Shown here: positions 10,123-29,947 of the stretch, piece after piece
How the letters are laid out: each line of letters begins with the position of its first letter
Numbering within the stretch: position 1 is the stretch's first letter
Source of the DNA: an uncultured beta proteobacterium
Lineage (GTDB): Bacteria > Pseudomonadota > Gammaproteobacteria > Burkholderiales > Eutrophovitaceae
Reading direction: 5' to 3'
DNA length: 64,000 nucleotides
NCBI GenBank assembly: GCA_963792855.1
Contig: CAWBXZ010000001.1
Coordinates: 154,246 to 218,245 of the forward strand
Notes under the pieces: generated by a model
What the model saw: only the letters and a program-made list of their open reading frames with translations
What the model was told of the DNA's origin: nothing
Databases searched by the model: none
Translations under genes and position numbers: made by a program

Positions 10123-11244
10123 ATGAAATTGCCTGGCCTTATCGTGTCCGTCATTGTGGCGGCAGTTTTTGTTACCGGCTGTTCCAGCCTGTCCGATCGC
10201 AACAAGGTCGATTACCGGTCGGCCAAGCGTCTGCCACCGCTTGATGTGCCTCCCGATCTGGTCGTGCCGCGTGCCAGTGAGCGTTACGATTTGCCCGGCC
10301 AGGAAGGGGCTACGTACTCGGATTACACACGGGAGCGCGCCGATGCCGGCCAGATTTCCCAGGAAGCGGTCTTGCCTGACGAAGAAGGCATGCGGGTCGA
10401 GCGCCTCGGCACTTATCGCTGGCTGGTGGTGGAGATGGACCCTGCAGAGCTCTGGCAGCCGCTGCGCGAGTTCTGGCAGGAAACGGGCTTTCTGATTGCT
10501 GTCGACGACCCCAACGCAGGCCTGATGGAAACGGACTGGGCAGAAAATCGCGCGAGAAACAGCGACTCATGGTTTGGCAGAACCTTCGGTTCTTTCGGGG
10601 TCGTGACGTCCCTGAACGAGCGAGACAAGTTCCGCACGCGGGTGGAACGCGGCGATGCGTCGGGGACGACCGAAATCTTCATCAGCCATCGGGGCCTCGC
10701 GCAACAGCAACAACGGCAGCAACTGCAAACGAGCAGTACCGTGCCGCAAAAAGGCTACTGGCAGGTAAGGCCTCGTGATCCGGATCTCGAGGCGGAGATG
10801 CTGTATCGGCTGATGGCAAAACTCGGAGGCACGAAGGAACAGGTCGAACAGGCGAAGGCAGTGCCCGAGCCAGCGCCGCGAGCCGCGCTGGCAAGCGGTG
10901 AGGACAAGCTCGAGTATCTGGAATTGCAGGATACGTTTGACAAGGCGTGGCGGCGAGTCGGGCTGGCGCTCGATTACATCGGATTTACCGTAGAGGATCG
11001 GAACCGGGCCGAAGGTGTCTATTTCGTTCGTTATAACGATCCCGACGCGACTGTCGAGCAGGAAGGCCTGGCAAAGTTGGCATTCTGGCGCGACGACGAA
11101 CCGGTTAACCGCAAGTATCAGATCAGAGTCACCGGCCAGGAGGCCGGTGGCAGCGAAGTGCAGGTGCTCGACGAATCCGGCGCGGTTCTGGCAACGCCTA
11201 CTTCGAGTCGCATACTTGCGTTGCTGCGCGACCAGCTGAAGTAG
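10123..11244 (+). CDS. bamC: Outer membrane assembly lipoprotein BamC
   Basis: Lipobox VTGC; LDVPPDL, METDWAENRA, DKFRTRVER, AWRRVGLALD..GFTVEDRNR; follows dapA. Confidence 0.9.
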   Translation: MKLPGLIVSVIVAAVFVTGCSSLSDRNKVDYRSAKRLPPLDVPPDLVVPRASERYDLPGQEGATYSDYTRERADAGQISQEAVLPDEEGMRVERLGTYRWLVVEMDPAELWQPLREFWQETGFLIAVDDPNAGLMETDWAENRARNSDSWFGRTFGSFGVVTSLNERDKFRTRVERGDASGTTEIFISHRGLAQQQQRQQLQTSSTVPQKGYWQVRPRDPDLEAEMLYRLMAKLGGTKEQVEQAKAVPEPAPRAALASGEDKLEYLELQDTFDKAWRRVGLALDYIGFTVEDRNRAEGVYFVRYNDPDATVEQEGLAKLAFWRDDEPVNRKYQIRVTGQEAGGSEVQVLDESGAVLATPTSSRILALLRDQLK

Positions 11245-14873: not shown

Positions 14874-15674
14874 TCAGCGCTGTTTGCCGGTCAGGACATG
14901 TATCATCGGCTCGTAGGCCGACTCCCTGGAAAAGCGCCAGCTGGCAATCGCCACTGCCACGAGAGTGAATCCGGTAAGCACGGCGAAATCAGTCGTGAGT
15001 GCGAAATCCGCTGCCATTACCCCCGGGCCCATCGTGGCATGCTTGAGCAAATCGACGCCATAGGTGTAGGGATTGACCGTGGCCACCCACCTGAGTACCT
15101 CCGGGAGGTTCTGTACCGGGTACAAGGAACCGCTGAGGAAGAACACCGGAAAGATTACGAAATTCATGATCGCGGCAAAATTGTCGAGGGTGCGCGTGAA
15201 AGACGCGGTGAGGATGCCGATTCCTGCGCAGGCAAGCGACGTGATGACCAAACCGCCGGCAAGGAGCACGAAGTTGGTTTTGGAGCCGATGTATCCGAGC
15301 AGCGCGAGTAACACGATCAGAATCAGGGCCTGGAGGACGGCTGCAAGTGCTGCAGACAGCACTTTGGCAATGACGATCCAGAAGTGGGGCAGTGGCGCGA
15401 TGATCATCATGCGCATGACGCCGGATTCCTTGTCATAGACCGTGGTCAATGCCGCCAGCATGGCGCCGAACAGCATGGTCATGCCGATGACGCCGGCAAC
15501 CAGGAATGACTGATAGGGAATACCGCGCGAGTCCCCGATCACGGTGCCAAATCCCGCGCCGATAACAAATAACCAGATCAACGGGCGCACCATGGCCGAT
15601 ACGAGTCGCGTTTTCTGCCGCAACATGCGCAGTACTTCGCGTTCAAGAACGGCGTAGATTGGCCGCGCGATCAT
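14874..15674 (-). CDS. ABC-2 type transporter permease (PedC-like)
   Basis: About six hydrophobic segments; RLVSAMVRPLIWL, PVFFLSGSLYP, NPYTYGVD; ATGA overlap with the ATPase. Confidence 0.85.
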   Translation of the reverse strand: MIARPIYAVLEREVLRMLRQKTRLVSAMVRPLIWLFVIGAGFGTVIGDSRGIPYQSFLVAGVIGMTMLFGAMLAALTTVYDKESGVMRMMIIAPLPHFWIVIAKVLSAALAAVLQALILIVLLALLGYIGSKTNFVLLAGGLVITSLACAGIGILTASFTRTLDNFAAIMNFVIFPVFFLSGSLYPVQNLPEVLRWVATVNPYTYGVDLLKHATMGPGVMAADFALTTDFAVLTGFTLVAVAIASWRFSRESAYEPMIHVLTGKQR

Positions 15675-16624
15675 GATCTGAGCGCCTTGCCCGCAGAGAT
15701 CCACATGAACACGTCGTTCAGGTTCGGGCGCCGCACGCGCCAGGCTGTCGTTTTCTCTCCGACTTCCGATTGCAGGTTTGCAAGCGTGGCTATTTCTTCC
15801 GCGCCGTGGCGGAAGAACGCGACATCTCCGTCGACCAGGCATTCGCCGAGTTTTGGTTCCAGGTGTTTGCGCAATGCGTCAAGATCCTGCGCTTCGACTT
15901 CCAGGATATGTTGCCCCAGTCTCGCAACCAGGTCTTGCGGATTGCCTTCTTCTACCAGCTTGCCCTTGCGTACAAATACCACTCGGTCGCACGGATACGC
16001 TTCTTCCAGGTAATGAGTGGTCAGCAAAACGGTCATGCCGGTTCGGGCACGCAGTCGCTCGATAAAGCGCCAGATGCGCCGGCGGTTGGGGAGATCGAGA
16101 CCGATGGTGGGTTCATCGAGGAACAGTACACGAGGTTCGTGCAGCACGCCACGCACGATGTCCAGTGCGCGGCGCATGCCGCCCGAAAGAGTCGCGACCG
16201 GCTTGTCGCGCCGGTCTGTCATTTCAAACAATTCGAGCAACTCCGCAGAGCGCTGGTCACTGATGGCTGGCGGCAGGTTATACAGGCGCCCGGCGAAACG
16301 CAGGTTCTCCCTGACCGTCAGGGTGCGGTCGAGAGCTGATTCCTGAAACACGAGGCCGATCTGGCGGCGTGCCTGGACCGGGTGCCGCGAAACATCGACC
16401 TCACCGATTCGCACGCGTCCCTCTGTCGGTCTGACCAGCGTCGCCAGCATGTGGATGGTCGTTGTCTTGCCGGAACCGTTGGGGCCGAGGAGCCCAAAAA
16501 ACTGTCCGGCTGGAATTTCCAGATCGAGGCCGTCCACAGCGGTGACGTTGCCGTAGCGCTTAACGAGTCCGGCCGCGGAGATCGCGGCCGGAGAAGCGGG
16601 TTCGTCGATCGCGTTGGCGATCAT
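15671..16624 (-). CDS. ABC transporter ATP-binding protein (DrrA/PedB-like)
   Basis: GPNGSGKT, LSGGM, LFLDEPT, TTHY; ATGA overlap with the pqqE stop. Confidence 0.92.
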   Translation of the reverse strand: MIANAIDEPASPAAISAAGLVKRYGNVTAVDGLDLEIPAGQFFGLLGPNGSGKTTTIHMLATLVRPTEGRVRIGEVDVSRHPVQARRQIGLVFQESALDRTLTVRENLRFAGRLYNLPPAISDQRSAELLELFEMTDRRDKPVATLSGGMRRALDIVRGVLHEPRVLFLDEPTIGLDLPNRRRIWRFIERLRARTGMTVLLTTHYLEEAYPCDRVVFVRKGKLVEEGNPQDLVARLGQHILEVEAQDLDALRKHLEPKLGECLVDGDVAFFRHGAEEIATLANLQSEVGEKTTAWRVRRPNLNDVFMWISAGKALRS

Positions 16625-17811
16625 GTAACTGGCGTGGTGTTGTTCCGGGGTGCAGGCTCTGCTGAATCACGGGCGGCCAGTTTGCGCGAGTTCTTGTCAT
16701 CGCGGAACATGATGATTTTTTTGACCTCTGCCGCCGGTGGTTGTGGCTGCTGTGCGAGTTCGACCTGCTCGGTGACGAGTTGGTGGTAAGGTGACTTGTC
16801 ACATACCGGATCGGCATTGGTGGCATCGCCGGTCAGCATGAAAGCCTGGCAGCGGCAGCCGCCGAAGTCCTTGGTTTTCTCCGAACAACTCCTGCACGGT
16901 TCCTGCATCCATTCGTCGCCGCGATATGCCGCGAATCCGGGAGACTCCTGCCAGATCCAGCGCACGTCGTGGTCACGCACGTTCGGGAATTCGAGACCGG
17001 GCAGCATCCGCGCTTCGTGGCATGGCAGCGCCAGCCCGTCTGCCGCGACGTTGAGAAACGTCGTTGCCCAGCCGTTCATGCACGCTTTGGGGCGGTCGGC
17101 GTAATAGTCCGGCACGACAAAATACACCTTCATCTTGTTGCCGACGCGTTCGCGAAAGCGATTGGTGATCTCTTCGGCGCGTTCCAGTTGCGGCCGGCTG
17201 GGCATCAGGTGCTTGCGGTTTTCCATCGCCCAGGCGTAATACTGGCTGTTTGCCAGTTCGACGTGCTCGGCGCCCATGGCTTCTGCCATGTTCAGAATCT
17301 CTTCGATATGGTCGATGTTGAGGCGGTGCAGGACCACGTTGAGCACCATCGGATACTCGTACTCCTTGATCAGCTTTGCCACCTTTGACTTCAGATCGAA
17401 GGTGCGCGTGCTCGACAGGAAGTCATTCAGCTCTTTGGTGGAATCCTGAAAGGACAGCTGTATCTGGCCAAGGCCGCCTTCCTTGAAAGCGGCGATGCGT
17501 TTCTCTGTCAGACCGATTCCCGAGGTGATCAGGTTGACGTAGTAACCCATCTTGCTGGTTTCTGCCACCATGATCTCGACGTCGTCGCGCATCAATGGTT
17601 CGCCGCCGGAAATGCCCAGTTGCACAGCGCCAAGTTCGCGCGCCTCGCGAAAGGTCTTGAGCCATTCTTCGGTGGTCAATTCCGGACCGAACGTGGCGTA
17701 GTCCACCGGGTTGTAACAGAACACACAGTGCAACGGGCACTTGTAGGTGATCTCGGCGTTAACCCAGAGCGGGCCGTTAACTTTCTTGCTGTCGGATCCA
17801 GCCTTTTGCAT
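16621..17811 (-). CDS. pqqE: PqqA peptide cyclase, radical SAM/SPASM
   Basis: EITYKCPLHCVFCYNP, SGGEPL, PKACMNGW, ALPCH, CRSC..DFGGCRCQAF..DPVC. Confidence 0.96.
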   Translation of the reverse strand: MQKAGSDSKKVNGPLWVNAEITYKCPLHCVFCYNPVDYATFGPELTTEEWLKTFREARELGAVQLGISGGEPLMRDDVEIMVAETSKMGYYVNLITSGIGLTEKRIAAFKEGGLGQIQLSFQDSTKELNDFLSSTRTFDLKSKVAKLIKEYEYPMVLNVVLHRLNIDHIEEILNMAEAMGAEHVELANSQYYAWAMENRKHLMPSRPQLERAEEITNRFRERVGNKMKVYFVVPDYYADRPKACMNGWATTFLNVAADGLALPCHEARMLPGLEFPNVRDHDVRWIWQESPGFAAYRGDEWMQEPCRSCSEKTKDFGGCRCQAFMLTGDATNADPVCDKSPYHQLVTEQVELAQQPQPPAAEVKKIIMFRDDKNSRKLAARDSAEPAPRNNTTPVT

Positions 17812-18073
17812 ATGCTGCCTCCAGAAAATCGATCACATCCTGGCGCAAATCCGCGCCCGGAAAGGCGGTCTCGAGATCGGCAACGATCTGCGATACCGTT
17901 TTGCTGCCATCCACCCGCTTCATGATCTCGCCGGAACTGCCCGGCAATTTCACCATGCCTTCCGGATAAAGCAGCACGAAGCTGTCTTGCGCCGGTTCCC
18001 ACTGGAATCGGTACTGCTTGACCAATGCGACTTTCAGGTTCTCCGAAAGTTTTTGTCCGGACGAATCACTCAT
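17777..18073 (-). CDS. pqqD: PqqA peptide chaperone
   Basis: [25 protein letters not shown]; lies between pqqC and pqqE. Confidence 0.94.
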
Positions 18074-18809
18074 CGGGCATCCTTTGGATGGCTCCGGTCT
18101 TTTCCTTGCCAATGCCGTAGGTAACCTGCATCGAATCCAGCATGGTCCAGAGCACATCGAGCTTGAACTGCAGTATTTCCAGCGCCCGTTCCTGCTGTTC
18201 ACGCGTGCGGAAATGGTCGAGCGTCACGCGCAGCCCATGTTCGACGTCGCGGCGAGCCTCGGTCAAACGTTTGCGGAAGTAGGCGTAGCCGGTTGGCTCA
18301 ATCCACGGGTAATGCTGTGGCCAGGTGTCCAGCCGCTTTTGATGAATCGTTGGCGCGAACAATTCGGTCAGCGACGAGCAGACCGCTTCCTGCCAGGGCG
18401 CGCTGCGTGTGAAGTTTACGTACGCGTCAACTGCGAAGCGCACACCGGGCAGCACGTGCTTCAATGACATGACGTCGTCGCGCTTCAGTCCGACGGCATC
18501 GCCCAGCGCCAGCCAGGCCTCGATGCCGCCCTCGTCGCCTTCGTGCCCGTCATGGTCGAGGATGCGTTGTATCCACAGGCGGCGATGGTCGCGATCGGGC
18601 ATGTTGGCGAGTACGCCAGCGTCCTTGATCGGTATCTTGATCTGATAATAAAAGCGATTGATCACCCAACCGCGAACCTGTTCCTCGGTACACTTGCCGC
18701 CGTTCATCGCAATGTGGAACGGATGGTAAATGTGATAGCGCTTGTCCTTGGCGCGCAGTCTTTGTTCGAATTCTTCCTTGCTCCAGGGCATTGTCTCGGC
18801 GGCACCCAT
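18066..18809 (-). CDS. pqqC: Pyrroloquinoline-quinone synthase
   Basis: [44 protein letters not shown]. Confidence 0.96.
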
Positions 18810-18835
18810 ATTTTTCTCCTTACGGCTCCAAACGC

Positions 18836-19753
18836 TCAGATTCTGATGTCCATGCCGTCGAACGAAATCTCGATATTCTCGCTCTCGAGTTGACGGCGCT
18901 CATCCGAATCTTCCCGAAGAATCGGGTTGGTATTGTTGATGTGTATCAGGATCTTGCGTTTCGCCTTGAGCGGGCGAAGCGTTTCAATCATGCCGCCTGG
19001 GCCGGACTGCGGCATGTGGCCCATGTCCAGTGCCATCTTGTTGGCAATGCCGAGCCTGGCCATTTCGTCGTTGGTCCAGGTGGTGCCGTCGACCAGCAGA
19101 CAATCCGCTTCTTCCATGAAGGGTTTGACATGGGGTTCGACTTCGGCGAGTCCCGGCGCATAAAACAGTTTCTTTCCGCTGCGCGTGTCCGTGATCCGCA
19201 TGCCGATGTTGTCGCCTTCGTGAGGATCATTCCGGTGCGGGGAGTAGGGCGGTGCCTTGCTACTCAGGGGCACAGCGGTGAATTCAAGGTTGTCGATACC
19301 GACTGCGGAGAACTTGTTGCCCGAATTCGTTGGAATCTGGTGCCAGTTCACGCCGCAGTAATGTTCCAGGATCTTCAGCAACGGATTGCCGGTGGTGAGA
19401 TCCTCATATGCCATGTCGGTACAGTAGAGTTCCAGCGGGGTCTTGCCTTCGCGCAGCATCAGGAGCCCGGTGGTGTGATCGATCTGTGCATCCATCAGGA
19501 ACACCGAGCGTACCGCAGTGTCCCTTATGGCTCGTGCCGGCTGAAGTTCCGGAAAGGAGCGAAACTGCGTCAGGATGTCGGGGGATGCATTAAACAACGC
19601 CCAGTTGGTGTCGTCGCCCGAGACGGCGATCGACGATTGCGTGCGCGCCTTCGCGTTGATGGTCCCTTTGCGCAAGCCGTCACAGTTGGGGCAGTTGCAG
19701 TTCCACTGGGGAAATCCTCCACCAGCGGCCGATCCGAGCACTCTGATTCGCAT
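18836..19753 (-). CDS. pqqB: PQQ biosynthesis hydroxylase PqqB
   Basis: [40 protein letters not shown]. Confidence 0.96.
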
Positions 19754-19783
19754 GATGAGTTTGTGATGCGTTGATTGTGGATG

Positions 19784-19813
19784 AAAAAAACGAAAGCCCC
19801 TGACGGGGCTTTC
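19784..19813 (-). terminator. Intrinsic terminator/attenuator hairpin between pqqA1 and pqqB
   Basis: Minus strand GAAAGCCCC-GTCA-GGGGCTTTC followed by GTTTTTTT. Confidence 0.85.
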
Positions 19814-19832
19814 ATTCTGCACTTCGCCGCGA

Positions 19833-19904
19833 TTAGCGGTTGGCGATGTACATCGTTACTTCGAATCCGAAGCGCATTTCGCTGTACTCAGGCTTGGTCC
19901 ACAT
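19833..19904 (-). CDS. pqqA: PQQ precursor peptide, copy 1 (absent from the ORF track)
   Basis: [23 protein letters not shown], with the E-x3-Y core and a GGAG RBS; upstream of pqqB. Confidence 0.97.
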
Positions 19905-20123
19905 GTGATTGATCTCCAAATTATCAGGTTGATGGATACTCTTTCGGACATTCGACGATGAACTCTCGCTTTTTGCCCGGGTTTCAGCTTCAACCGCCTG
20001 TCAAACCTGCGCCAACTCGACCGAGTCAAGACTGCAGGATTCAGGGCGAATGCTTCTGACTGACCCCGGGAGCTATTGTCGATTCCCGGCCGTTTCGGTG
20101 CCGCAGAAAAATCAGCAAAACCC

Positions 20124-20142
20124 TCTCATGATTATCATGAGA
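20124..20142. promoter_or_regulatory. Perfect 9-1-9 palindrome in the divergent pqqA1/tonB promoter region
   Basis: TCTCATGAT-T-ATCATGAGA; a near copy lies upstream of pqqA2. Confidence 0.7.
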
Positions 20143-20190
20143 TTTGGACCGAAACTTTACTCGGCTCAACAGCTTGCATAGTCTTGCAAA

Positions 20191-21483
20191 ATGACATCAG
20201 TGACTTTCGGGGAGACCGGTCCGGCCCTCGATCCATTTGTTTCCTGGTACCGCGAGAGGCCAACCCAGTTGGCATTTGCGGTGTCACTGCTGTTGCACGC
20301 GCTGGTGATCGCGCTCATTCCCGGGTTTCGATCAGTCCCGCTGGAAACGCCGAGCGTATTGACAGTCCGGATCGTCGAAAACGAAATCGTGGCAGAGCGA
20401 TCACCGCAGCCCGTGACGGAGGTGCCGGAGCGGGTGCAGCCGCCACAGCCGCTATCGCCTCCGGAATTCTTGCCCCCGGTTCCGCAACCGAGAGTCGTCG
20501 AACAGGAGCCGGTCAGGCCTCGCCAGGCGCTCGAGCCGCAGCCCGCGCCCCTATTGCGGCAACCGGAACAACCGATGGTGGAGCCGGTCGACCGACCGCA
20601 GCTTGCGCCTGCCGTCCCGCGCCAAAGAACGCAAGTGCAACCCGAAATTCTCACGCGGCCGACGCTGACCCCGAACCAGCCGCTTGCCCCCGTCGTCCGG
20701 CAAGAGCCTGTAGCACCGCTTGAAGCGCCACCCCAGCAGATCACGGAAGTCCGCCGCCAGCCGCGGGTGGTCAGACCGGTGCCGGTCGAGGCACAACGCC
20801 CGGATGTCGCGCCATCCGTCACACCACCAGTACAGATTCAGCAACAGCGGGTCGAGCGGCCTGAGGCCCCGCCCCAGCAAATTGCCGAAGTTCGGCGCGA
20901 GCCGCGGGTCGTAACTCCGGCCCCGTCCCGGCCGCTACCGGATGCCCCACCGCCGGCCGTATCGCCAGTGCGGATTCAGCAACCCGCTTCAGCCCAGGCG
21001 GCGCCGGCTCAGCCGGTGCCAGCCGAGCCGGTGCCGGTTGAACGGACGAAGCCGCAGGCGGCCGCCGCGGCAGCGCCGCCAGCCAGCGTCGCGGCAAGGC
21101 CGAGTGTGCCGGTGCCGGCCGCGGCTCCGGTGGTCGCGGCGCCCCCCCCGCCCGTACCTGCCCCGGCACCTGCGAAGCCGGTAGTCGAGGCAGTCGAGCC
21201 GTCGGTGCTGGAGGCCTACCGGAATTCGGTGTCGCAGGAAGTCATGAAGCACATGAGTTATCCACGCGTCGCTGTCCGGCGCAAGTGGGAGGGAAAAACG
21301 ATCGTCGAGATGCAGTTGTCGGCGGAAGGCGATGTCACCCAGCTCAGTGTTGCCGAGTCCAGCGGAAAGGATGTGCTTGATGAGGCGGCAGTTGCAATGG
21401 TCCGGCGATCACTACCGTTGCCGAAACCGCCGCCAGGCGTGCGTTCGGTCAGGGTGCCGGTGGTATTCAGGCTACAGGGTTGA
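20191..21483 (+). CDS. tonB: TonB-family energy transducer with a long Pro/Gln-rich linker
   Basis: N-terminal TM with SLLLH motif, Pro-rich linker, C-terminal YPRVA..EG..SSG..LDEAA. Confidence 0.88.
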   Translation: MTSVTFGETGPALDPFVSWYRERPTQLAFAVSLLLHALVIALIPGFRSVPLETPSVLTVRIVENEIVAERSPQPVTEVPERVQPPQPLSPPEFLPPVPQPRVVEQEPVRPRQALEPQPAPLLRQPEQPMVEPVDRPQLAPAVPRQRTQVQPEILTRPTLTPNQPLAPVVRQEPVAPLEAPPQQITEVRRQPRVVRPVPVEAQRPDVAPSVTPPVQIQQQRVERPEAPPQQIAEVRREPRVVTPAPSRPLPDAPPPAVSPVRIQQPASAQAAPAQPVPAEPVPVERTKPQAAAAAAPPASVAARPSVPVPAAAPVVAAPPPPVPAPAPAKPVVEAVEPSVLEAYRNSVSQEVMKHMSYPRVAVRRKWEGKTIVEMQLSAEGDVTQLSVAESSGKDVLDEAAVAMVRRSLPLPKPPPGVRSVRVPVVFRLQG

Positions 21484-21502
21484 TCACGCCCGAACCCCTT
21501 GC

Positions 21503-22459
21503 ATGACAAATGCCGCTGCCGACGGGCTGTATCCACCGATTGATGCATTCGACCGAAGGACGCTTGCGGTAACGTCACCGCATGGCCTTTATGTCGAGCA
21601 AAGCGGGAATCCGTCCGGCTTTCCTGTCGTGTTCTTGCATGGCGGCCCGGGCAGCCAGACCAATCCGGATCACCGCCGTTATTTCGATCCCGCTTTTTAC
21701 CGTGTGGTGCTGTTTGACCAGCGCGGCTGTGGCCGTTCTACGCCTGCCGGCTGCACGCAAGCCAACACGACGTGGGATCTGGTGGGCGACATGGAAGAAA
21801 TCCGGCGCAGTCTGAAAATCGACAGGTGGCTGCTGTTCGGCGGGTCATGGGGCAGTACGCTTGCATTGGTCTATGCCGGTCTACACCAGCAACGGGTTGC
21901 CGGGATGATTCTGCGCGGCGTGTTTCTTTCCGATCGCCCGGAATTGGACTGGTATCTCAACGGCTTGCGCCGATTTGTGCCCGAAGCCTGGCAACGGCTG
22001 ACCGGGGGCGACCCGGAGCGCATCATCGAGCGTTATCATCGTGACGTGAATCATGTAGATCGGGCTTTTGCGGTCGAAGCCGCGCGTCGCTGGGTTGAGT
22101 ACGAGCAGAGTGTCATGGCGATTGGCGCTGTTTCCACACCATCGGCAGGCGTTGGTGACGAATCCGCCTTGCTTGCGCGCGCCCGTGTGCAACTGCATTA
22201 TCTGGCTGCCGGCTGTTTTCTGCGTGAGGGTCAGTTGTTTGAAAGCGCAAACGGGATCCAGGCACCTGCCATCGTAGTGCAAGGACGCACGGATATGGTT
22301 TGTCCGCCGGTGACGGCATTTGAGCTGAGCCGGCGGTTGCCGAATGCGCAATTGCGTGTCATCGAGCAGGCGGGTCATTCTGCAGCAGGGCAGCGGCTGG
22401 CACCGGCTTTGCGCAGCGCGGCCGACGATATGCGTACCGTTGTTGCAGCGACAGCATGA
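21503..22459 (+). CDS. pip: Prolyl aminopeptidase (proline iminopeptidase, S33)
   Basis: LYPPI, HGGPG, FDQRGCGRS, GGSWGS nucleophile, QGRTDMVCP, AGHS. Confidence 0.92.
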   Translation: MTNAAADGLYPPIDAFDRRTLAVTSPHGLYVEQSGNPSGFPVVFLHGGPGSQTNPDHRRYFDPAFYRVVLFDQRGCGRSTPAGCTQANTTWDLVGDMEEIRRSLKIDRWLLFGGSWGSTLALVYAGLHQQRVAGMILRGVFLSDRPELDWYLNGLRRFVPEAWQRLTGGDPERIIERYHRDVNHVDRAFAVEAARRWVEYEQSVMAIGAVSTPSAGVGDESALLARARVQLHYLAAGCFLREGQLFESANGIQAPAIVVQGRTDMVCPPVTAFELSRRLPNAQLRVIEQAGHSAAGQRLAPALRSAADDMRTVVAATA

Positions 22460-24210
22460 GCCTGCGTTTTCGCATCAATCTGGTTATCACCGCAGTGGTT
22501 GCGGGTTTTGCGGTCGTGACGGCCTACCTTCTGGTCGGCGACCTGAGCAAATCCATCAACGAAGAAATCGAGGCCGGCACGCGAGTCACGGTGCAACTGC
22601 TCGAAACAGTCATCGCCAGCTCGCAGGAAGTCGCTGCGGGTGGCAACGAGATGGTCGGGCTGGCGATGTTTCTGCGCGATGCGGGCCGGGTGCGTGCCAA
22701 TGAAATTCGCCTCTACGACGCGCTGGACAATCTGATCTACGAGTCGCCCCCATCCGTTTACAAACAGGGCAGATGGGCGCCGGAATGGTTCGCGTCCCTG
22801 GTGCGCCCCCCTGTCAGGGAGTTTCGCCTGTCCATGCCGGGAGGCACGATCGTGGTAACCCCTGATGCGTCGCGGTCGATTCTCGATGCCTGGGACGAGC
22901 TGAAATGGCTGGGCGGGTTACTGGTGGCGTTCTTCGTGTTGCTGAATCTTGTCGTTTTCTGGCTGCTTGGCCGTGCGATGCAGCCGCTGGGCGGTATCCT
23001 CAAGGGACTTTCGGAGATGGAACAGGGCCGCTTTTCCGTACGGTTGCCTGATTACGACTTGCCGGAATTCGCCTCGATCAGCCACACGTTCAACCGTATG
23101 GCACAGGCGCTGGAGGACAGCATGATGGAAAATCGCCGTCTCGCGCTGGTTGCGCAACAGTCGAGCGATGCCATCATCATCCACGACCTCTCCGGCCGGG
23201 TGTCGTTCTGGAATGCGGCGGCGGAAAGGATGTTTGGTTACCAGGCGAACGAGATTCTTGGCAGATCCGCGACCAAAATTGCACCACCGGAGCGGCAGTC
23301 CGAACTGCGCGAAACCCTCGAGGCGATTCGCCGCCGCAAGCGTGTCGAACATTTCGAGACCCAACGCCTGACCAAGTCGGGCGAGCGCGTTGACGTTGCA
23401 CTGTCGGCGGCTCCGCTGGTTGATCCGGCAACGGACGAGGTAATCGGCGAGATTTGCGCCATGCGCGATATGACCGAGCACAAGCGAATGCAGGCCACGG
23501 AACAGGAACTCGAGCGCAACCGGCGGCTGACGCAGCTGATCCAGTCGAAGCTGGAAGAAGAACGCCGCAATATCGCCCGTGAACTGCACGACGAACTGGG
23601 GCAGTGCGTGACCGCGATCAAGACGGTGGGAACCGCGATTGCCAACCGCCGCGATGAAACATCGGAAGAAACGCGCAAAAACGCCGGTACCATCGTCTCG
23701 GTCGCATCGCATATCTACGACGTTGTTCATGGCATTATCAGGCAATTGCGTCCGAGCGCGCTCGACCACCTGGGGTTGCGAGAAGCACTGCGTGACGCGG
23801 TCGCTGTCTTTCAGTCGCGACACCCGGAACTTGCCGTGAGCATCAACATGGGTGAGGAAATCGACGGCTTCGGAGAAAGCATCAACATTACGGTGTATCG
23901 CATTGTTCAGGAATGTCTGACCAACGTGGCACGCCACGCCGAAGCGACGCAGGCGGTGATTTCGGTATCAAGAATAAAGGACCCGGGCTGCGGCGAAGCG
24001 CTGGAGTTGCGGGTGAAGGACAACGGCAAAGGGCTGGATGACCAGGTTGATTTGTCTGGTTCCAGGCGTTTCGGGCTGATGGGGATGCGGGAGAGGGTGC
24101 AGGCGTTTGGCGGCAATCTGGAAATCTCCGGTGGACCGGGCCAGGGCGTGCTGGTGAAAGCGGTCATTCCGGTCAAACAGCCGCAGCCCGAGCTGGCGGC
24201 GCTCGGCTGA
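22456..24210 (+). CDS. Membrane sensor histidine kinase (MoxY-like periplasmic domain, HAMP, PAS, HisKA_3)
   Basis: Two TMs, APEWF, WNAAAERMFGY (PAS), ERRNIARELHDELGQ, QECLTNVARHA, FGLMGMRERV. Confidence 0.9.
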   Translation: MSLRFRINLVITAVVAGFAVVTAYLLVGDLSKSINEEIEAGTRVTVQLLETVIASSQEVAAGGNEMVGLAMFLRDAGRVRANEIRLYDALDNLIYESPPSVYKQGRWAPEWFASLVRPPVREFRLSMPGGTIVVTPDASRSILDAWDELKWLGGLLVAFFVLLNLVVFWLLGRAMQPLGGILKGLSEMEQGRFSVRLPDYDLPEFASISHTFNRMAQALEDSMMENRRLALVAQQSSDAIIIHDLSGRVSFWNAAAERMFGYQANEILGRSATKIAPPERQSELRETLEAIRRRKRVEHFETQRLTKSGERVDVALSAAPLVDPATDEVIGEICAMRDMTEHKRMQATEQELERNRRLTQLIQSKLEEERRNIARELHDELGQCVTAIKTVGTAIANRRDETSEETRKNAGTIVSVASHIYDVVHGIIRQLRPSALDHLGLREALRDAVAVFQSRHPELAVSINMGEEIDGFGESINITVYRIVQECLTNVARHAEATQAVISVSRIKDPGCGEALELRVKDNGKGLDDQVDLSGSRRFGLMGMRERVQAFGGNLEISGGPGQGVLVKAVIPVKQPQPELAALG

Positions 24211-24236
24211 TGCGCCAAGGCCGCAGGTAATCAGGA

Positions 24237-24881
24237 ATGCGCGATCAAGACATAGGAGTAATGCTGGTCGACGACCATGCCGTCGTGCGAATGGGGTTTC
24301 GCTTGCTGCTCGAAGGCTCGAGCGATATAAAGGTCCTGGGTGAGGCCGACAGCGGCGAGGAAGCAGTGCGCCGCTTTGGCGAAATGAAACCGGATGTCAT
24401 TGTGATGGACATTTCAATGCCCGGAATTGGCGGTCTCGAAGCCATAGACCGGATTCTTGCAAAAGACCCGGGGGTGCGCATCCTGGTGTTGTCGGCGCAC
24501 GAGGACGCGATGCACGCGCGGCGTGTCCTCAAAGCGGGTGCGGCCGGCTATCTCACCAAGCGCAGTGCAGCGGAGGAACTGATCCGGGCGATCAGGGTGG
24601 TTTCGCAGGGCAAGACCTACCTCGAGCCCGGCATCGCGCAACAGATGGCGGTTGAGCAGGTCTCGGGGCAGCGTAATCCGGTAGATACCCTTAGCGAAAA
24701 GGAGTTCAAGGTGTTCCTGTCACTGGCCAGCGGCCGCTCGGTTCAGGAGATAGCCGAGGTCATGTCGCTCAGCCCGCGCACGGTCGGCACCCATCTGTAC
24801 AACATCAAACAGAAGCTGGGGGCATCAAACAGTGCCGAACTGGCCATTATCGCGATACGGGCAGGGCTCATAGACCCTTGA
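24237..24881 (+). CDS. NarL/LuxR-family response regulator
   Basis: [34 protein letters not shown]. Confidence 0.93.
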
Positions 24882-24924
24882 AATACATGTATATTTTCTT
24901 AATCTCCCAGGCCATCGGGACGTT

Positions 24925-24959
24925 TCTAATGAAAATCATGAGTGGCTTTTACGCGTTTT
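24925..24959 (+). promoter_or_regulatory. Imperfect copy of the pqqA1 upstream box
   Basis: TCTAATGAAAATCATGAGTGGCTTTTACGCGTTTT matches the minus strand of 20108-20142 at 27 of 35 positions (16 of 19 in the palindrome). Confidence 0.65.
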
Positions 24960-25052
24960 GCGCTGTTGACCCGGCCGCGGGATAGCGAGAATGCGTACGT
25001 CGGTTGTACAGACACCCCGGTTAGTAAAACTTTCATGAAGAGGAATCAAACC

Positions 25053-25124
25053 ATGTGGACCAAACCCGAATTCACCGAAATGCGTTTTGGCTTTGAAGTC
25101 ACGATGTACATCGCCAACCGCTAA
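25053..25124 (+). CDS. pqqA: PQQ precursor peptide, copy 2
   Basis: [23 protein letters not shown], with a GAGGA RBS. Confidence 0.97.
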
Positions 25125-25138
25125 TTACCGGTTAGTGT

Positions 25139-25170
25139 CGAAAAAGGCTGCCTTCGGGCAGCCTTTTTCG
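25139..25170 (+). terminator. Intrinsic terminator after pqqA2
   Basis: CGAAAAAGGCTGCC-TTCG-GGCAGCCTTTTTCG. Confidence 0.9.
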
Positions 25171-25247
25171 TTTGTGGCCTCTTTATCCTTTATGGTGTCG
25201 TAAACTGGAACTATCTGAAACAAATAAAAAGAGCAGAGGAGGAGCAG

Positions 25248-27440
25248 GTGGACAGGAACAGCCAAACGGCCGTCGCTTGGGTCGCATATGGGGTTTTGAA
25301 CAACCCTCTGAAGATCGTTTCATTACCCGCCAGGCCGGTTTGTCTGGCATTGACAATCGTGGCCGGTTCGTTGGCTGCAACGGCGGCTCTCGCCGAGGAA
25401 GAAACGATCAATGTCGCGCCCGTCGTGGTGACGCCGACGCGGGTAGAGCAATCGAGTTTTGACCTGCCGGTTTCGGTCGATGCGTTTGACAAGCAGGACA
25501 TCCAGACTGCACAGCCACAGGTCAACGTTTCGGAAGTGCTGGTCAAGGCCCCCGGAGTGGTTGCCAATGACCGGCAGAACTTCACACAGGATCTTCAAAT
25601 CTCCATCCGTGGTTTCGGAGCCCGCGCTGCATTTGGCGTACGCGGCATACGGATCATCGCCGATGGTATTCCGCTCACCATGCCTGACGGCCAAAGCCAG
25701 GCAGGCAATATCGACCTTGGCACCGCCGAGCGCGTCGAAGTGCTGCGCGGCCCGTTTTCGTCGCTCTACGGCAATTCGTCGGGCGGCGTCATCAACGTGT
25801 TTACCGAAGACGGACCTGAGCAACCCACGGTGACGGGTTCGGCCTGGGTGGGCGATTTCGGCAGTAGCAAAATTGACCTGAAGGCGGGCGGCCAACAAGG
25901 CCTCGTCAATTATGTTGCCAATGTGTCCCGCTATGATACTGACGGTTATCGGGAACACAGTGCGGCCACACGCGATATTTTGAACACGAAAGTGCGTATG
26001 GATGTCAGCGATGACACCAGCGTTACCGTCATTGCGAACGCACTGCGCCAGCCGGATTCACTGGATCCCGGCAGCTTGACGAAAGCGCAAGTCGAGGCTG
26101 ATCCGACACAGGCAGCCGCTTCGTCGATTCTGTATAACACCCGCGAGTCCGTAGACAATTCCCAGGCGGGTGCCGTACTTGAGCAGCGATTGTCTTCTTC
26201 GGATACTCTCCGCTTTGCCGGTTACGCTGGAACGCGGGATGTGGAAGGATACCTCGGGTTCGGTGGCACGGCTTTCACCGTGGGTCGTGGCGTCATTGGA
26301 CTGGACCGGGAATTCTATGGCCTTGACGCCCGATGGACACGGCAAACCCTGTTGGCAGACAGACCAATGACATTCACCATTGGCCTGAACTACGACAACA
26401 TGGAGGAACGGCGTAAGAGCTGGTCGAATAATTTCGGTGTCAAGGGCGAGTTGGGGCGCGACGAGGACAACACGGTATTCAATTTCGATCAGTTTGCTCA
26501 GGCCGAGTGGCTGCTCACAGATCGCTGGAGCGTCAGTGGAGGTCTGCGGCACAGCACGGTGAAGTTCGAGAGCAAGGATTACTTTGTTACCGGCACAAAC
26601 CCGGACGATAGCGGCAACCTCGAATTCAGCGAAACAACGCCGGTGATCGGGGCCGTGTTCAAGGTTACCCCGGTATTCAATCTCTACGCCAACTATGGCA
26701 AAGGTTTCGAGACGCCAACGTACGTCGAGCTGGCTTACGCCTCCTCCGACGGATCGGTGACCGGGCTGAACTATGACTTGAAAGCGTCGACCAGCAACAA
26801 CTACGAGATTGGCGCAAAGGCCTTCCTGGGCGCATATACGCGCGTCAACGCCGCGGTTTTCGTGATTGATACCAAGGACGAGGTGGCAGTGTTCACCAAT
26901 CAGCGCGGCCGCGCGGTTTATCAGAATATCGACGGGACCAGCCGCGAGGGTTTCGAACTGACGATCGACAGTGAGTTCGGGAATGGCCTCGCCGGGCTGC
27001 TAACTTATTCCTACATCGATGCGACCTATGACAATGCGTTCGGATCGTGCGTCGGAGTGTGTTCGACGCCCGCAGGACCGAATACTCTGGTACCTGCCGG
27101 CAATAAAATCCCCGGCATTCCGGCGAATGTCGTCTACGGCGAGCTCGCCTGGGCCAGCGGCGATGGCATGTTCACTGCGTTGGAAGTGCGCTGGAGCGAC
27201 AAGGTCTTCGTAAACGATATCAACGACGAGTTTGCCGACGCATACACTGTCATGAACTGGCGTCTTGCCTTCCAACAGGCCATTGCAGGCTGGAGGGTCA
27301 CCGAGTTCGCCCGGGTCAACAATATTCTTGACGAGCAGTACGTGGGTTCCGTGGTTCTCAACGACTCGGACCGTGCCTATTACGAACCTTCGCCGGGCCG
27401 CAACTTCATCGTCGGCGCGTCGCTCAGCTACGCGTTCTGA
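25248..27440 (+). CDS. TonB-dependent receptor, YncD/PqqU-like (candidate PQQ importer)
   Basis: Plug motif RQNFTQDLQISIRGFGARAAFGVRGIR..DGIPLTMPDGQSQ, EVLRGPFSSLYGNSSGGVI, FETPT, YEPSPGRN and a C-terminal F. These resemble E. coli YncD (PqqU) as I recall it. Start uncertain. Confidence 0.85.
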   Translation: MDRNSQTAVAWVAYGVLNNPLKIVSLPARPVCLALTIVAGSLAATAALAEEETINVAPVVVTPTRVEQSSFDLPVSVDAFDKQDIQTAQPQVNVSEVLVKAPGVVANDRQNFTQDLQISIRGFGARAAFGVRGIRIIADGIPLTMPDGQSQAGNIDLGTAERVEVLRGPFSSLYGNSSGGVINVFTEDGPEQPTVTGSAWVGDFGSSKIDLKAGGQQGLVNYVANVSRYDTDGYREHSAATRDILNTKVRMDVSDDTSVTVIANALRQPDSLDPGSLTKAQVEADPTQAAASSILYNTRESVDNSQAGAVLEQRLSSSDTLRFAGYAGTRDVEGYLGFGGTAFTVGRGVIGLDREFYGLDARWTRQTLLADRPMTFTIGLNYDNMEERRKSWSNNFGVKGELGRDEDNTVFNFDQFAQAEWLLTDRWSVSGGLRHSTVKFESKDYFVTGTNPDDSGNLEFSETTPVIGAVFKVTPVFNLYANYGKGFETPTYVELAYASSDGSVTGLNYDLKASTSNNYEIGAKAFLGAYTRVNAAVFVIDTKDEVAVFTNQRGRAVYQNIDGTSREGFELTIDSEFGNGLAGLLTYSYIDATYDNAFGSCVGVCSTPAGPNTLVPAGNKIPGIPANVVYGELAWASGDGMFTALEVRWSDKVFVNDINDEFADAYTVMNWRLAFQQAIAGWRVTEFARVNNILDEQYVGSVVLNDSDRAYYEPSPGRNFIVGASLSYAF

Positions 27441-27571
27441 ACCCGCCACGTTGACTTGCTGGCAGGGCAAGGCAAGGAGCCCCGCGGGACTGTAGGTCCG
27501 GGGGGGTTGTCAGTGCCTGAAAGGGCGCCTAAGATTTGGCGCTAACCAATAAGAATCAAGGAGTCGTAAAG

Positions 27572-28111
27572 GTGCAATCAGCCGGTCGATACACGAATGT
27601 GGCGATTATCCTGCACTGGATTGTTGCGGTGCTGGTGTTGGTCCTGATTGGGCTTGGCGTGTATATGGTCGATATTCCACGCGGCACGCCTGAACGCGCC
27701 TACTTCTATAACCTTCACAAATCGATCGGGCTGACGACGGGGATTATTGTTCTGATCCGTTACTGGTGGCGCAGGAGAAATCCGCCACCGCCACTGCCCT
27801 CGTCGATGCCGGCGTGGCAGGTCACCGCATCGAACATCAGCCATGCATTGCTGTACGCCATGCTGATCATGATGCCCATCGCCGGTTTTACCGCTTCGCA
27901 GTTCACCAAGTATGGCGTCACGTATTTTGGATTGTTCAAGATACCGCCGATGGGGCCGCAAAACCAGGTGTTATACGATTTCTTCCAGGGCGTGCATGAG
28001 AACACGTCCTACGTTTTGATGGTCGTCGTGATTGTGCACATCCTCGCAGCGCTGCAGCATCTGTTACTGAAAAAAGACGGCATATTCCAGAGGATGTTGC
28101 CTGGCGGCTAG
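27572..28111 (+). CDS. Cytochrome b561 (CybB/YceJ family)
   Basis: LHW, HKSIG, H..LY, HILAALQH..KDGIFQRM; AAGGAG RBS before GTG 27572. Confidence 0.9.
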   Translation: MQSAGRYTNVAIILHWIVAVLVLVLIGLGVYMVDIPRGTPERAYFYNLHKSIGLTTGIIVLIRYWWRRRNPPPPLPSSMPAWQVTASNISHALLYAMLIMMPIAGFTASQFTKYGVTYFGLFKIPPMGPQNQVLYDFFQGVHENTSYVLMVVVIVHILAALQHLLLKKDGIFQRMLPGG

Positions 28112-28375: not shown

Positions 28376-29947
28376 ATGAATACCCCTGCGAAGAGTGGTG
28401 ACGAAGGCAAACCCAAGCTGATAGTCCGAAACGCCCGCCTGGAGGATATCGCCACCATTCAATCCGTGTATCGAAAGGTCTATTCGGATATACCGGGGTA
28501 TTCGGAAGCGCAACTTCGAGGGCAGATGCTGACCTTTCCGATGGGCCAGTTCGTCGCGGAGTACGAAGGTCAGGTTGTTGGCTACTGTGCCACTTTCCGC
28601 ATTTCAGAGCGCGTTGCCTTCCAGCCGCATGACTGGATGGAGATTACCGGTAGCGGCTTCGCTTCGCGCCATGAGTCGGATGGCGACTGGTTATACGGCA
28701 TGGAAGTTTTCGTTGACCCGCAGATGCGGGGCTCTCGCATTGGGCAGCGCCTGTACAACGAACGCAAGGACTTGTGCACTCGTCTCGGCCTGAAGGGGAT
28801 TGTATTCGGCGGTCGGTTGCCAGGTTTGTCCCGCCGCTGGAAGAAGGTCGGTTCGGCCGACGCGTATGTAAATCTGGTCAAGGAAAAGAAGATAAGAGAC
28901 CGGGTGCTGAGCTTTCAGTTGCGAAATGGCTTCGAAGTCATGGGTGTGCTCGCGAATTATTTGCCCACGGACCGGGAATCAATGGGCTATGCAGCCCATC
29001 TCATCTGGCGTAACCCGAAATATCAAAATCCGACTCGGGATGTGCGCCAGCAGCGTGGCAGGATTTCGGAAACGGTTCGTGTGTCGTTGGTGCAGTATCA
29101 ACAGCGGCGCGTATCTTCTTTCAAGGAGTTCGGACACCAGGTCGAATACTTCGTCGATGTGGTGGCAGACTACAAATCGGATTTTGTCGTTTTCCCCGAG
29201 CTGTTCACGCTGCAATTGCTGTCGATCGAGAACCAGCAGATCCCGGCATCCGCGGCGATAGAGACGCTGACCGGGTACACGGAACCCCTGAAGGAACTGC
29301 TTTCGGATCTGGCTGTGCGATACAACATCAACATCATTGGCGGTTCGCATCCAACACACGACGAAAGCGGCAACATACTCAACATTTGTTATGTCTGCTT
29401 GCGAGACGGGTCGGTGCACGGCCAGGCGAAGATTCATCCGACGCCGAACGAGCGTTACTGGTGGAACATCGAGGGCGGTGACGATCTGCATACGATCATG
29501 ACCGATTGCGGCCCGATCGGGGTGATGATCTGCTATGACTGCGAGTTCCCGGAGCTTGCCCGGCATCTGGTTGATCAGGGTGCACAAATCCTGTTTGTCC
29601 CATTCTGTACCGATGAGCGTCAAAGTTACATGCGCGTCCGGTATTGTGCCCAGGCGCGAGCTGTCGAGAACCAGTGTTTTGTCGCAATGGCCGGTAATGT
29701 CGGCAATCTGCCCAATGTCGACAATATGGACATCCAGTACGCGCAAAGTTGCATCCTCACGCCGTGTGATTTCCCGTTTGCACGCGACGGCATCGCCGCC
29801 GATACGACACCGAACGTTGAAATGGTTGCGTTTGCCGATTTGCGACTGGAAGACCTCAAGGCCGGCCGCAGGTCGGGTACGGTGCAGAACCTGAAAGACC
29901 GCCGGTTCGATCTTTACTCGGTAAACTGGAAGCGCCGCAGTATCTGA
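28376..29947 (+). CDS. Bifunctional GNAT acetyltransferase / carbon-nitrogen hydrolase (YhcX-like)
   Basis: GNAT V..RG.RIGQRLY..RK; nitrilase-family triad in FPE, KIH and ICYDCEFPE. Confidence 0.9.
   Translation: MNTPAKSGDEGKPKLIVRNARLEDIATIQSVYRKVYSDIPGYSEAQLRGQMLTFPMGQFVAEYEGQVVGYCATFRISERVAFQPHDWMEITGSGFASRHESDGDWLYGMEVFVDPQMRGSRIGQRLYNERKDLCTRLGLKGIVFGGRLPGLSRRWKKVGSADAYVNLVKEKKIRDRVLSFQLRNGFEVMGVLANYLPTDRESMGYAAHLIWRNPKYQNPTRDVRQQRGRISETVRVSLVQYQQRRVSSFKEFGHQVEYFVDVVADYKSDFVVFPELFTLQLLSIENQQIPASAAIETLTGYTEPLKELLSDLAVRYNINIIGGSHPTHDESGNILNICYVCLRDGSVHGQAKIHPTPNERYWWNIEGGDDLHTIMTDCGPIGVMICYDCEFPELARHLVDQGAQILFVPFCTDERQSYMRVRYCAQARAVENQCFVAMAGNVGNLPNVDNMDIQYAQSCILTPCDFPFARDGIAADTTPNVEMVAFADLRLEDLKAGRRSGTVQNLKDRRFDLYSVNWKRRSI

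Follow-up and report, generated by a model that had tools for sequence, protein, structure and literature searches.

We analyzed a 64,000-nucleotide stretch of DNA from an uncultured beta proteobacterium of the Burkholderiales (assembly GCA_963792855.1, contig CAWBXZ010000001.1, positions 154,246 to 218,245; hereafter the window) and focused on a locus for the cofactor pyrroloquinoline quinone (PQQ). The locus is a genuine two-armed PQQ cluster. From open reading frame (ORF) listings, translations and profile searches, the left (minus-strand) arm reads pqqA1, hairpin, pqqBCDE, ATP-binding cassette (ABC) ATPase and ABC-2 permease, and the right (plus-strand) arm reads tonB, pip, histidine kinase, response regulator, pqqA2, hairpin, PqqU-type receptor and cytochrome b561 (Table 1). 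A first-pass annotation of the same DNA had named these genes, and each was confirmed in place. It had also described two pqqA-led blocks, each with a terminator-like hairpin, and a tonB-pip-kinase-regulator run between the arms; hairpins were folded at both pqqA genes, and the run occupies positions 20191-24881 of the plus strand. Upstream of both pqqA genes lies a 17-bp palindrome, CTCATGA-W3-TCATGAG, which we call the pqq box and which is central to our interpretation of the locus.

Table 1. Features of the two-armed PQQ locus, in window coordinates
Feature	Coordinates	Strand	Evidence or remark
ABC-2 type permease, candidate PQQ exporter subunit	14874..15674	-	PF01061, E 1.2e-34
ABC transporter ATPase	15671..16624	-	PF00005
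pqqE, radical SAM/SPASM	16621..17811	-	TIGR02109, 500.7 > 381
pqqD	17777..18070	-	NF002535, 108.9 > 101
pqqC	18066..18809	-	TIGR02111, 372.5 > 240
pqqB	18836..19756	-	TIGR02108, 423 > 245
Terminator-like hairpin and U-run after pqqA1	19781..19818	-	-24.5 kcal/mol, z -4.45
pqqA1, precursor peptide gene	19833..19904	-	TIGR02107, 48.7 bits > 20; E-x3-Y motif
Predicted -10 element GACAAT, pqqA1 promoter	20075..20080	-	predicted start near 20068
pqq box 1, CTCATGATTATCATGAG	20125..20141	.	between pqqA1 and tonB
TonB-like protein, long proline-rich spacer	20191..21483	+	TonB_C, 61.1 bits > 24.6
Prolyl aminopeptidase (Pip)	21503..22459	+	TIGR01249, 301.6 > 259.75
Sensor histidine kinase: transmembrane segment, PDC-like periplasmic domain, transmembrane segment, HAMP, PAS, HisKA_3, HATPase	22456..24210	+	domain profiles, model
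NarL/LuxR-type response regulator	24237..24881	+	Response_reg and GerE
pqq box 2, CTAATGAAAATCATGAG	24926..24942	.	upstream of pqqA2
Predicted -10 element GAGAAT, pqqA2 promoter	24987..24992	+	predicted start near 24999
pqqA2, second precursor peptide gene	25053..25124	+	TIGR02107, 50.2 bits > 20
Terminator-like hairpin and U-run after pqqA2	25139..25176	+	-31.7 kcal/mol, z -6.19
PqqU-type TonB-dependent receptor, 730 residues	25248..27440	+	phmmer E 2.5e-149 against 6v81, 1.3e-148 against 9c4o
Cytochrome b561, accessory, not core	27536..28111	+	PF01292, 114.3 > 30.1

PqqB, PqqC, PqqD and PqqE all exceed their NCBIfam equivalog cut-offs, which upholds the earlier claim that the locus makes PQQ. 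Across the whole genome, pqqA was found exactly twice, and the pqqBCDE set and a PqqU homologue once each. The same genome carries at least eight full-length genes of the PQQ-dependent methanol/ethanol dehydrogenase family (loci L001-L008 plus other matches), and five of the eight or more pass the family cut-off; PQQ demand is therefore likely to be high. The canonical pqqABCDE operons of Methylorubrum extorquens, Klebsiella and Pseudomonas match the window in all five genes and in their order, and a hairpin follows pqqA there as well. The window differs from them as follows: profile searches of its genome found no PqqF/G equivalog, an ABC-2 pair is welded to pqqE, and a second pqqA-hairpin unit lies on the opposite arm, with both units behind one palindromic operator candidate.

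Conservation of the two-armed layout

An initial search with the receptor yielded 77 loci. Among the 21 best, which were mapped, three showed the full two-armed layout (L009, L010 and L025) and 18 had no pqq genes in the DNA examined. We also searched 401 genomes of the order for pqqE, the receptor and the permease. pqqE was detected in 108 genomes and the receptor in 160 (E <= 1e-80); the two lie within 0.2-9 kb of each other in about 30 genomes, and 28 such loci were fetched and mapped. The two-armed layout was found in 20 of these 28 loci and in the window, and it spans families f1, f28, f34, f35 and f45. Two of the 20 loci come from the genomes behind L010 and L025, and the two scans thus overlap.

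TonB, Pip, kinase, regulator, pqqA2 and PqqU are encoded in all 21 two-armed loci, the window included (two TonB genes were missed by tblastn and confirmed by Pfam), and the ABC pair is present in 17 of the 21. Other arrangements were also recovered. A regulator-kinase pair diverges from pqqABCDE-pqqU on one strand in L138-L140, pqqBCDE-pqqU occurs in a 1.3-Mb genome (L141), pqqBCDE-ABC-pqqU is found in L142 and L143, and L137 carries pqqEDCBA and pip, then a GGDEF-EAL gene and then pqqU. Linkage of tonB, pip, the receptor and the ABC pair to pqq genes in relatives had been set in advance as a check on the first-pass annotation. They stay linked, the ABC pair usually so, in 20 further loci from five families.

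A palindromic operator candidate

The pqq box was exposed by aligning the upstream regions of nine pqqA copies from four genomes. A search of the window genome with the 12 core positions, allowing up to one mismatch, gave 21 sites. Two of these fall in the two promoter regions, which together make up about 460 bp of a 4.2-Mb genome. When the 17-mer CTCATGAWWWTCATGAG was searched with up to one mismatch in five whole genomes, exactly two sites were found in each, and a reversed-pattern control returned no sites in the same five. All 10 of the sites precede pqqA or pqqB or occupy the pqqA1/tonB gap. The second box of genome G020 precedes an orphan pqqA with its own terminator, that of G374 precedes a pqqA unlinked from pqqBCDE, and G030 has three boxes, one ahead of each of its three pqqA copies. 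The box lies 108-255 nt upstream of the start codon in 54 of 54 pqqA genes (36 loci) and was carried by all 27 pqq-linked loci mapped. Among 398 genomes from other orders of the class, none has the exact box and 36 have a single one-mismatch match; pqqA was not near any of the 19 such loci that were fetched. The presence of the conserved box on both arms points to a hitherto undescribed regulator, which would act at the box and control PQQ supply in many betaproteobacteria.

Other exact or near-exact core palindromes inside ORFs (for example C5:206739 and C13:220314) were taken as chance, and a recurring box-like match inside ABC permease genes was attributed to conservation of the coding sequence and rejected as an operator. 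A third intergenic site, TCATGATAATCATGA at C5:421103-421117 (L086 2604-2618), does not have the outer C/G positions. It is flanked by a divergent sulfatase gene on one side and, on the other, by a 531-codon ORF of no assigned function followed by a MoxR-type AAA ATPase gene. It could be a further, weak target of this regulator or simply a chance match.

The box also stands in a fixed relation to predicted promoter elements. When 54 unique promoters were anchored on the box, a -10-like A-N-A-A/C-T motif began at +45 to +48 after the box in 47 of them, with T-tracts at +6 to +8 and +14 to +17 and a weak TGG at +22 to +24. Both -10-like hexamers of the window lie exactly 44 nt past the box. This geometry predicts that the box is centred near -65 relative to the predicted starts. 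On the tonB side, only 50 nt separate the end of box 1 from the tonB start codon, and therefore one palindrome could act on the two divergent units at once, the operon of the regulator itself among them.

In each of four metatranscriptome runs, taken from as many studies, a contig covers pqqA1, its hairpin and the start of pqqB; such contigs show neither ends nor levels and may contain DNA. Three of them stop slightly inside the predicted start at 20068, at 20059, 20058 and 20044, which is a weak hint at a transcription start. Contigs over pqqA2 were short and of low depth, with loose ends pointing to relatives, and gaps in coverage along the locus are uninformative.

The two-component system

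The kinase carries HisKA_3 and HATPase domains and the regulator carries receiver and GerE domains, as expected for a NarL/FixJ-type two-component system, and neither protein reaches a named NCBIfam equivalog. NarL-family regulators act as dimers on inverted repeats. Regulator orthologues share 57-89% identity, compared with at most 50% for the next paralogue. An orthologue of 57-70% identity was found in all box-bearing genomes tested (G374, G051, G104, G334, G020, G030, G007 and Methylophilus methylotrophus DSM 46235), and the box was absent from all three pqqE-positive genomes that have no regulator orthologue (G036, G164 and G004); this link is a co-variation among relatives, which are not independent samples. 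From these comparisons, the encoded response regulator quite probably binds the box.

Across 22 aligned kinase orthologues the mean column identity was 67%. Invariant residues in the periplasmic segment (residues 28-148) are E36, E37, R78, R80, Y95, Y102, K103 and R106, together with W111, F112, D137, R140, D144, W146 and D147. An AlphaFold model of residues 1-228 (mean pLDDT 83.4) places a small alpha/beta sensor between two membrane helices. Foldseek searches with this sensor returned only generic PDC-type domains (CusS, LapD/CdgS9 and the WalK extracellular domain; E 0.04-0.3), which point to no particular ligand. An anionic, aromatic compound such as PQQ would fit the conserved mix of basic and aromatic residues, and a metal would fit the acidic residues close to the membrane equally well.

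Two relatives differ in this part of the system. In M. methylotrophus DSM 46235 (L178), the kinase encoded beside the regulator aligns to residues 1-235 of the window kinase and then directly to residues 349-574; the PAS domain therefore seems to be missing, as it is in the shorter kinases of L138-L140. In L137 (family f25), a 1097-residue SBP_bac_3-GAF-PAS-GGDEF-EAL protein (7379-10669, minus strand) stands between pip and box-pqqU, in the place of the kinase and regulator.

The pqqA copies and their hairpins

Both pqqA products contain EVTMY, with the Glu-x3-Tyr cross-link residues, and one conserved proline is present in the leader of every PqqA examined. pqqA1 and pqqA2 differ at ten codons, with eight synonymous and two non-synonymous changes, and in family f28 the second copy has a conserved tail of its own (...MYVFNR versus ...MYIANR). 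Because most of the codon changes are synonymous and the f28 second-copy tail is conserved, these comparisons indicate that both copies are kept as coding genes under purifying selection. pqqA2 begins after a 171-bp gap from the response regulator gene. Tandem pqqA pairs stand ahead of pqqU in two genomes, with one box per copy in L120 (12021-12540) and one box for both in L147 (12880-13057).

Each hairpin has a 14-bp G+C stem, a 4-nt loop and a U-run, and none of 200 shuffled sequences folded as well as either. A strong stem with a U-run follows all nine pqqA copies in four genomes, and the stem sequences differ between genomes. Orphan pqqA copies in L148 and L149 are likewise trailed by a hairpin. 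An Rfam search with the pqqA2 hairpin gave just a sub-threshold ctRNA-like match (26.2 < 50) and no known riboswitch or leader. In other bacteria, a leaky terminator after pqqA has been reported to keep the precursor message in excess. The hairpins of the window are likely to attenuate transcription rather than fully stop it. The metatranscriptome contigs span the pqqA1 hairpin, and such contigs prove no single transcript.

Extra copies of pqqA are familiar from the Methylophilaceae, for which 3 to 12 copies are given in the available text of one report (PMC4109929) and five copies with different expression in that of another, which calls the regulation of PQQ biosynthesis unclear (PMC9851590). 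There, too, free-standing extra pqqA genes accompany one pqqBCDE set (the same excerpts), and in G030 and the M. methylotrophus record the pqqA copies are preceded by the same box as in the window. The window differs in that its extra pqqA is fixed ahead of pqqU, and no regulator or operator is named in the excerpts of PMC4109929 and PMC9851590.

The PqqU-type receptor

The receptor aligns end to end with E. coli YncD/PqqU (6V81 and 9C4O; chains 6v81 and 9c4o in Table 1). PqqU has been defined as a YncD homologue with Y, F or W at position 99 together with R304 and R365 (excerpts of PMC12124388), and the alignment places F129, R330 and R389 of the window receptor at these positions. R555 occupies the R536 position, so that this residue too is shared with the E. 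coli protein. The signature was present in all 29 pqq-linked receptors examined, and R536 was kept in 28. The window receptor differs from E. coli PqqU at the K274 position, where it has Glu (E300); this substitution was seen in three of the 29 receptors only, those of the window, L121 and L122. A K274-to-Glu variant of PqqU has been discussed as a possible site of PQQ-metal binding or metal co-transport (excerpts of PMC12124388). The NCBIfam PqqU equivalog cut-off was not reached (NF041535, 625.8 < 1200 bits), yet this was the best family by far, the next scoring 178 bits. The published signature supports the suggestion, already made in the first-pass annotation, that the locus would salvage PQQ.

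The setting of the gene also sets it apart from its E. coli counterpart, because window pqqU is headed by its own pqqA and box and travels with TonB, Pip and the two-component system. Pseudomonas aeruginosa is likewise a PQQ producer that keeps a PqqU importer, PA2289, for re-uptake (bioRxiv 10.64898/2026.04.27.721047). Window pqqU differs from PA2289 in sitting behind a conserved operator candidate and a pqqA gene.

TonB, Pip and cytochrome b561

The locus TonB has a TonB_C domain and, as read from its translation, a hydrophobic N-terminal segment and a Pro-rich middle. It is one of four TonB_C proteins in the window genome and probably energises PqqU. Its spacer contains internal repeats, and the protein is far longer than typical TonB proteins, with 430 residues in the window and about 350 to 651 in most relatives (L131 6411-8363); shorter ORF calls were made in f35.

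The pip start lies 19 bp after tonB, and the pip stop overlaps the kinase start by 4 nt. Pip is a second copy in the window genome, where a paralogue of 44% identity is found on contig C3, and no signal peptide is visible in its translation, as for a cytoplasmic protein. A gene of the prolyl oligopeptidase family, non-essential, occurs in Pseudomonas pqq operons (excerpts of PMC12997753). Because of this gene and the conserved proline of the PqqA leader, it is plausible that Pip trims the proline-containing leader, though we regard this role as doubtful.

Cytochrome b561 was placed in the right-hand block in the first-pass annotation. It follows pqqU in only 7 of the 21 two-armed loci, and we therefore consider it optional. 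It does not reach the NF008566 equivalog (50.6 < 170). Further downstream, at 28376-29947, is a 523-residue GNAT acetyltransferase fused to a carbon-nitrogen hydrolase, which is conserved with 84-86% identity in a genome of the same genus (L010/L120).

The ABC-2 pair linked to pqqE

The ATPase start overlaps the pqqE stop by 4 nt, and the permease start overlaps the ATPase stop by another 4 nt. Both proteins match their Pfam domains (ABC2_membrane and ABC_tran) and remain below the cut-offs for DrrAB-type ABC-2 exporters. The best NCBIfam matches of the permease were PedC (TIGR03861, 172.6 < 241.35) and DrrB (TIGR01247, 149.7 < 223.05), and those of the ATPase were DrrA (TIGR01188, 292 < 312.45) and the ATPase of the PQQ alcohol dehydrogenase system (TIGR03864, 214.4 < 302.25). 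No gene for a binding protein or beta-propeller adjoins the window pair, in contrast to PedA1A2BC, and profile searches found no PedC above the cut-off anywhere in the window genome.

Of the 30 best-matching loci, 26 carry the end of pqqE together with the ATPase and permease genes on the same strand, and the remaining four are truncated or interrupted (this set includes L108 and L110, from genomes flagged as unpublished). The permease was found in 71 of the 401 genomes of the order at E <= 1e-30, and in 59 of them at 49% identity or more. All but three of these 59 genomes are pqqE-positive (56/59); the others have a completeness of 65-85%, and in one of the three the pqq locus is degraded. 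Operon linkage and this phyletic pattern raise the possibility, which we put a little short of even, that the ABC pair moves PQQ or a late intermediate from the cytoplasm to the periplasm.

An ABC exporter has been suggested for PQQ before. In Methylorubrum extorquens AM1, META1p2359 is likewise an ABC exporter without a binding protein proposed to carry PQQ to the periplasm, and an aminopeptidase was also suggested to process PQQ (PMC7391723, Roszczenko-Jasinska et al. 2020). META1p2359 is a fused ATPase-permease that came from a transposon selection and is unlinked to pqq genes. The ABC-2 system of the window instead consists of two genes and shows translational coupling to pqqE, and the aminopeptidase there is prolyl, not leucyl.

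A second comparison is with PedA1A2BC and PedS2/PedR2 (EraSR) of Pseudomonas putida, which likewise tie an ABC-2 permease and ATPase to PQQ enzymes and pair a HisKA_3 kinase with a LuxR/NarL-type regulator, there in control of quinoprotein genes (excerpts of PMC12997753). The window kinase differs in its conserved periplasmic PDC-like and PAS domains, and the predicted target differs in being pqqA rather than dehydrogenase genes. A true Ped set was found in L144 (G197:C19:85000-96000), where scoring with the four Ped profiles (TIGR03861, TIGR03863, TIGR03864 and TIGR03866) put permease, ATPase and beta-propeller above their cut-offs and a binding protein just below (395.8 < 413.6). The L144 genome is without pqqE; its Ped set lies beside a PQQ alcohol dehydrogenase gene and a PqqU homologue, with no pqq box, and has the appearance of a scavenger module. 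The distant ABC-2 pair near pqqU in L144 thus belongs to a true Ped cluster and was set aside as no evidence on the window pair.

Discussion

We propose that the locus is a PQQ supply regulon, a reading to which we assign a probability of roughly 0.62. The dedicated two-component system would act at the CTCATGA-W3-TCATGAG palindrome. Box 1 could serve both divergent units, pqqA1 and tonB, and box 2 would drive pqqA2. Each pqqA hairpin probably yields abundant short precursor transcripts, with partial read-through into pqqBCDE and the ABC genes on one arm and into pqqU (and b561 where present) on the other. Induction would thereby increase, in concert, the precursor supply, the enzymes of PQQ synthesis, the ABC-2 pair, the outer-membrane importer of PQQ along with its own TonB, and the regulator itself. 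The first-pass annotation had pictured a self-contained PQQ economy of synthesis, export, salvage and local control. Comparative evidence supports synthesis, recapture and local control, and export remains as a good candidate. For local control, the support lies in a box that stands ahead of both arms, is confined to pqq genes genome-wide and co-occurs with the regulator orthologue.

The annotation had also supposed that the layout was undescribed, which holds in part. pqqU and the pqq operon are generally not syntenic, and synteny in the same orientation has been noted in four Burkholderiales genomes (Munder et al. 2025, PMC12124388, fig. S11, excerpts), so linkage of pqqU to pqq genes as such is not new. 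In the literature searched, supplements excepted, we found no description of a pqq operator, of its two-component system, of a pqqA-headed importer unit, of a Pip-PQQ link, of TonB and Pip travelling with these genes, or of a pqqE-linked ABC transporter. An established PQQ exporter was not found in that literature either.

Several observations weigh against the regulon. The regulator gene is apart from the box-bearing promoters in Methylophilus, G374, G051 and G104, and the dependence among related genomes noted above limits what their co-variation can carry. In G007 the box is present only as a symmetric two-mismatch variant, between pqqA and a divergent kinase-regulator pair. Neither pqqA hairpin was picked up by a simple scan for promoters and terminators, which yielded no useful promoter either, and the metatranscriptome contigs have the limits already given. 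P. aeruginosa PA2289 is reported to be constitutive and unresponsive to PQQ (bioRxiv 10.64898/2026.04.27.721047). No ExbD gene lies beside the locus tonB, and ExbD genes are found only elsewhere in the window genome; the locus TonB must therefore borrow ExbBD from another site. With respect to the ABC pair, 52 of the 108 pqqE-positive genomes lack an orthologue of at least 49% identity (nine of them have a distant match of 32-42%), and so do 4 of the 21 two-armed loci. The pair is therefore not a universal PQQ exporter. PedB and PedC, the named proteins closest to it, are components of PedA1A2BC, which is described as a lanthanide importer (excerpts of PMC12997753). In many loci slyD, bcp and a JmjC gene keep their place next to the pair as well, and part of the ABC-pqqE linkage could therefore be inherited gene order; in family f42 the pair stays with pqqE and these three genes are absent.

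These points feed into four alternatives. The one that deserves most attention concerns only the ABC-2 pair, which may not export PQQ at all and could instead handle a metal such as calcium or a lanthanide, or export PqqA-derived peptide debris or a pathway intermediate. We regard this as a substantial minority prospect. The lanthanide-importing relatives, the PedC and PQQ alcohol dehydrogenase-system ATPase families among the best matches, the eight or more PQQ-dehydrogenase family genes to be served, and the absence of the pair from four two-armed loci and about half of the pqqE-positive genomes all speak for it. Against these stand scores that stay under the Ped cut-offs (172.6 < 241 and 214.4 < 302) and the missing binding protein and beta-propeller, both of which accompany the genuine Ped set of L144. 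Moreover, the window pair is coupled to pqqE rather than to a dehydrogenase and, three incomplete genomes aside, occurs only in pqqE-positive genomes. A different regulator could also bind the box, leaving the local two-component system to control, for example, tonB-pip only or dehydrogenase genes elsewhere. Such an arrangement would fit the genomes in which the encoded regulator is unlinked from box-bearing promoters, and a paralogous kinase-regulator pair is indeed present on contig C18 of the window genome. We nonetheless consider it improbable, given that every box-bearing genome tested has a regulator orthologue and that all three box-less pqqE-positive genomes are without one. In L138-L140 and L153 the kinase-regulator pair diverges from pqqA with the box between them, and the binding of NarL-family dimers to inverted repeats argues in the same direction.

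It is also conceivable, and in our estimate quite improbable, that the neighbourhood reflects inherited gene order with no shared function, so that tonB, pip and b561 would have nothing to do with PQQ. The equal synteny of the unrelated slyD, bcp and JmjC genes, the patchy occurrence of b561 (7 of 21 two-armed loci) and the many PqqU-bearing genomes, the majority, in which pqqU is unlinked to pqq genes would be explained in this way. What such a history would leave unexplained is the box only 50 nt from the tonB start, the translational coupling of Pip to the kinase, the presence of Pip beside pqqA in L137 where there is neither kinase nor regulator, and the retention of TonB and Pip in all 21 two-armed loci from five families. 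Finally, pqqA2 might serve mainly as a cis-acting leader for pqqU, a short ORF with a terminator attenuator, rather than as a source of precursor. Its strong terminator 14 nt downstream and its position ahead of a structural gene do resemble a leader-peptide attenuator, and L137, L142 and L143 have box-pqqU without any pqqA2. This seems very improbable to us, because pqqA2 retains a full PqqA sequence under purifying selection, the pqqA-hairpin unit also occurs as an orphan with no downstream partner (L148 and L149) and ahead of pqqB, and the fold of the pqqA2 hairpin offers no alternative anti-terminator pairing.

Within the PQQ supply regulon, the signal could be the cofactor itself. The PDC-like domain of the kinase would then read free periplasmic PQQ or a PQQ-metal complex and act as a cofactor homeostat, with the ABC-2 pair as the exporter of PQQ from cytoplasm to periplasm. 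We think this combination unlikely. If it were true, falling periplasmic PQQ would turn on all pqqA copies, the enzymes, the ABC-2 pair and TonB-PqqU from one operator, and the same switch would govern PQQ output in the Methylophilaceae used for PQQ production.

The individual parts of the locus belong to known kinds, and its value is that it makes PQQ regulation and export testable. For the step from cytoplasm to periplasm, the ABC-2 pair is a widely conserved candidate, where the earlier candidate was speculative (PMC7391723). For the regulation of PQQ in methylotrophs, the kinase-regulator pair with its sharply defined operator is a concrete candidate, and since operator and regulator are also present in the cultured M. 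methylotrophus DSM 46235, the regulatory part is directly testable. The pqqA copy ahead of the importer suggests that producers couple making PQQ to recapturing it. Such a coupling matters for the view of PQQ as a public good in microbial communities, and for the engineering of strains for PQQ production.

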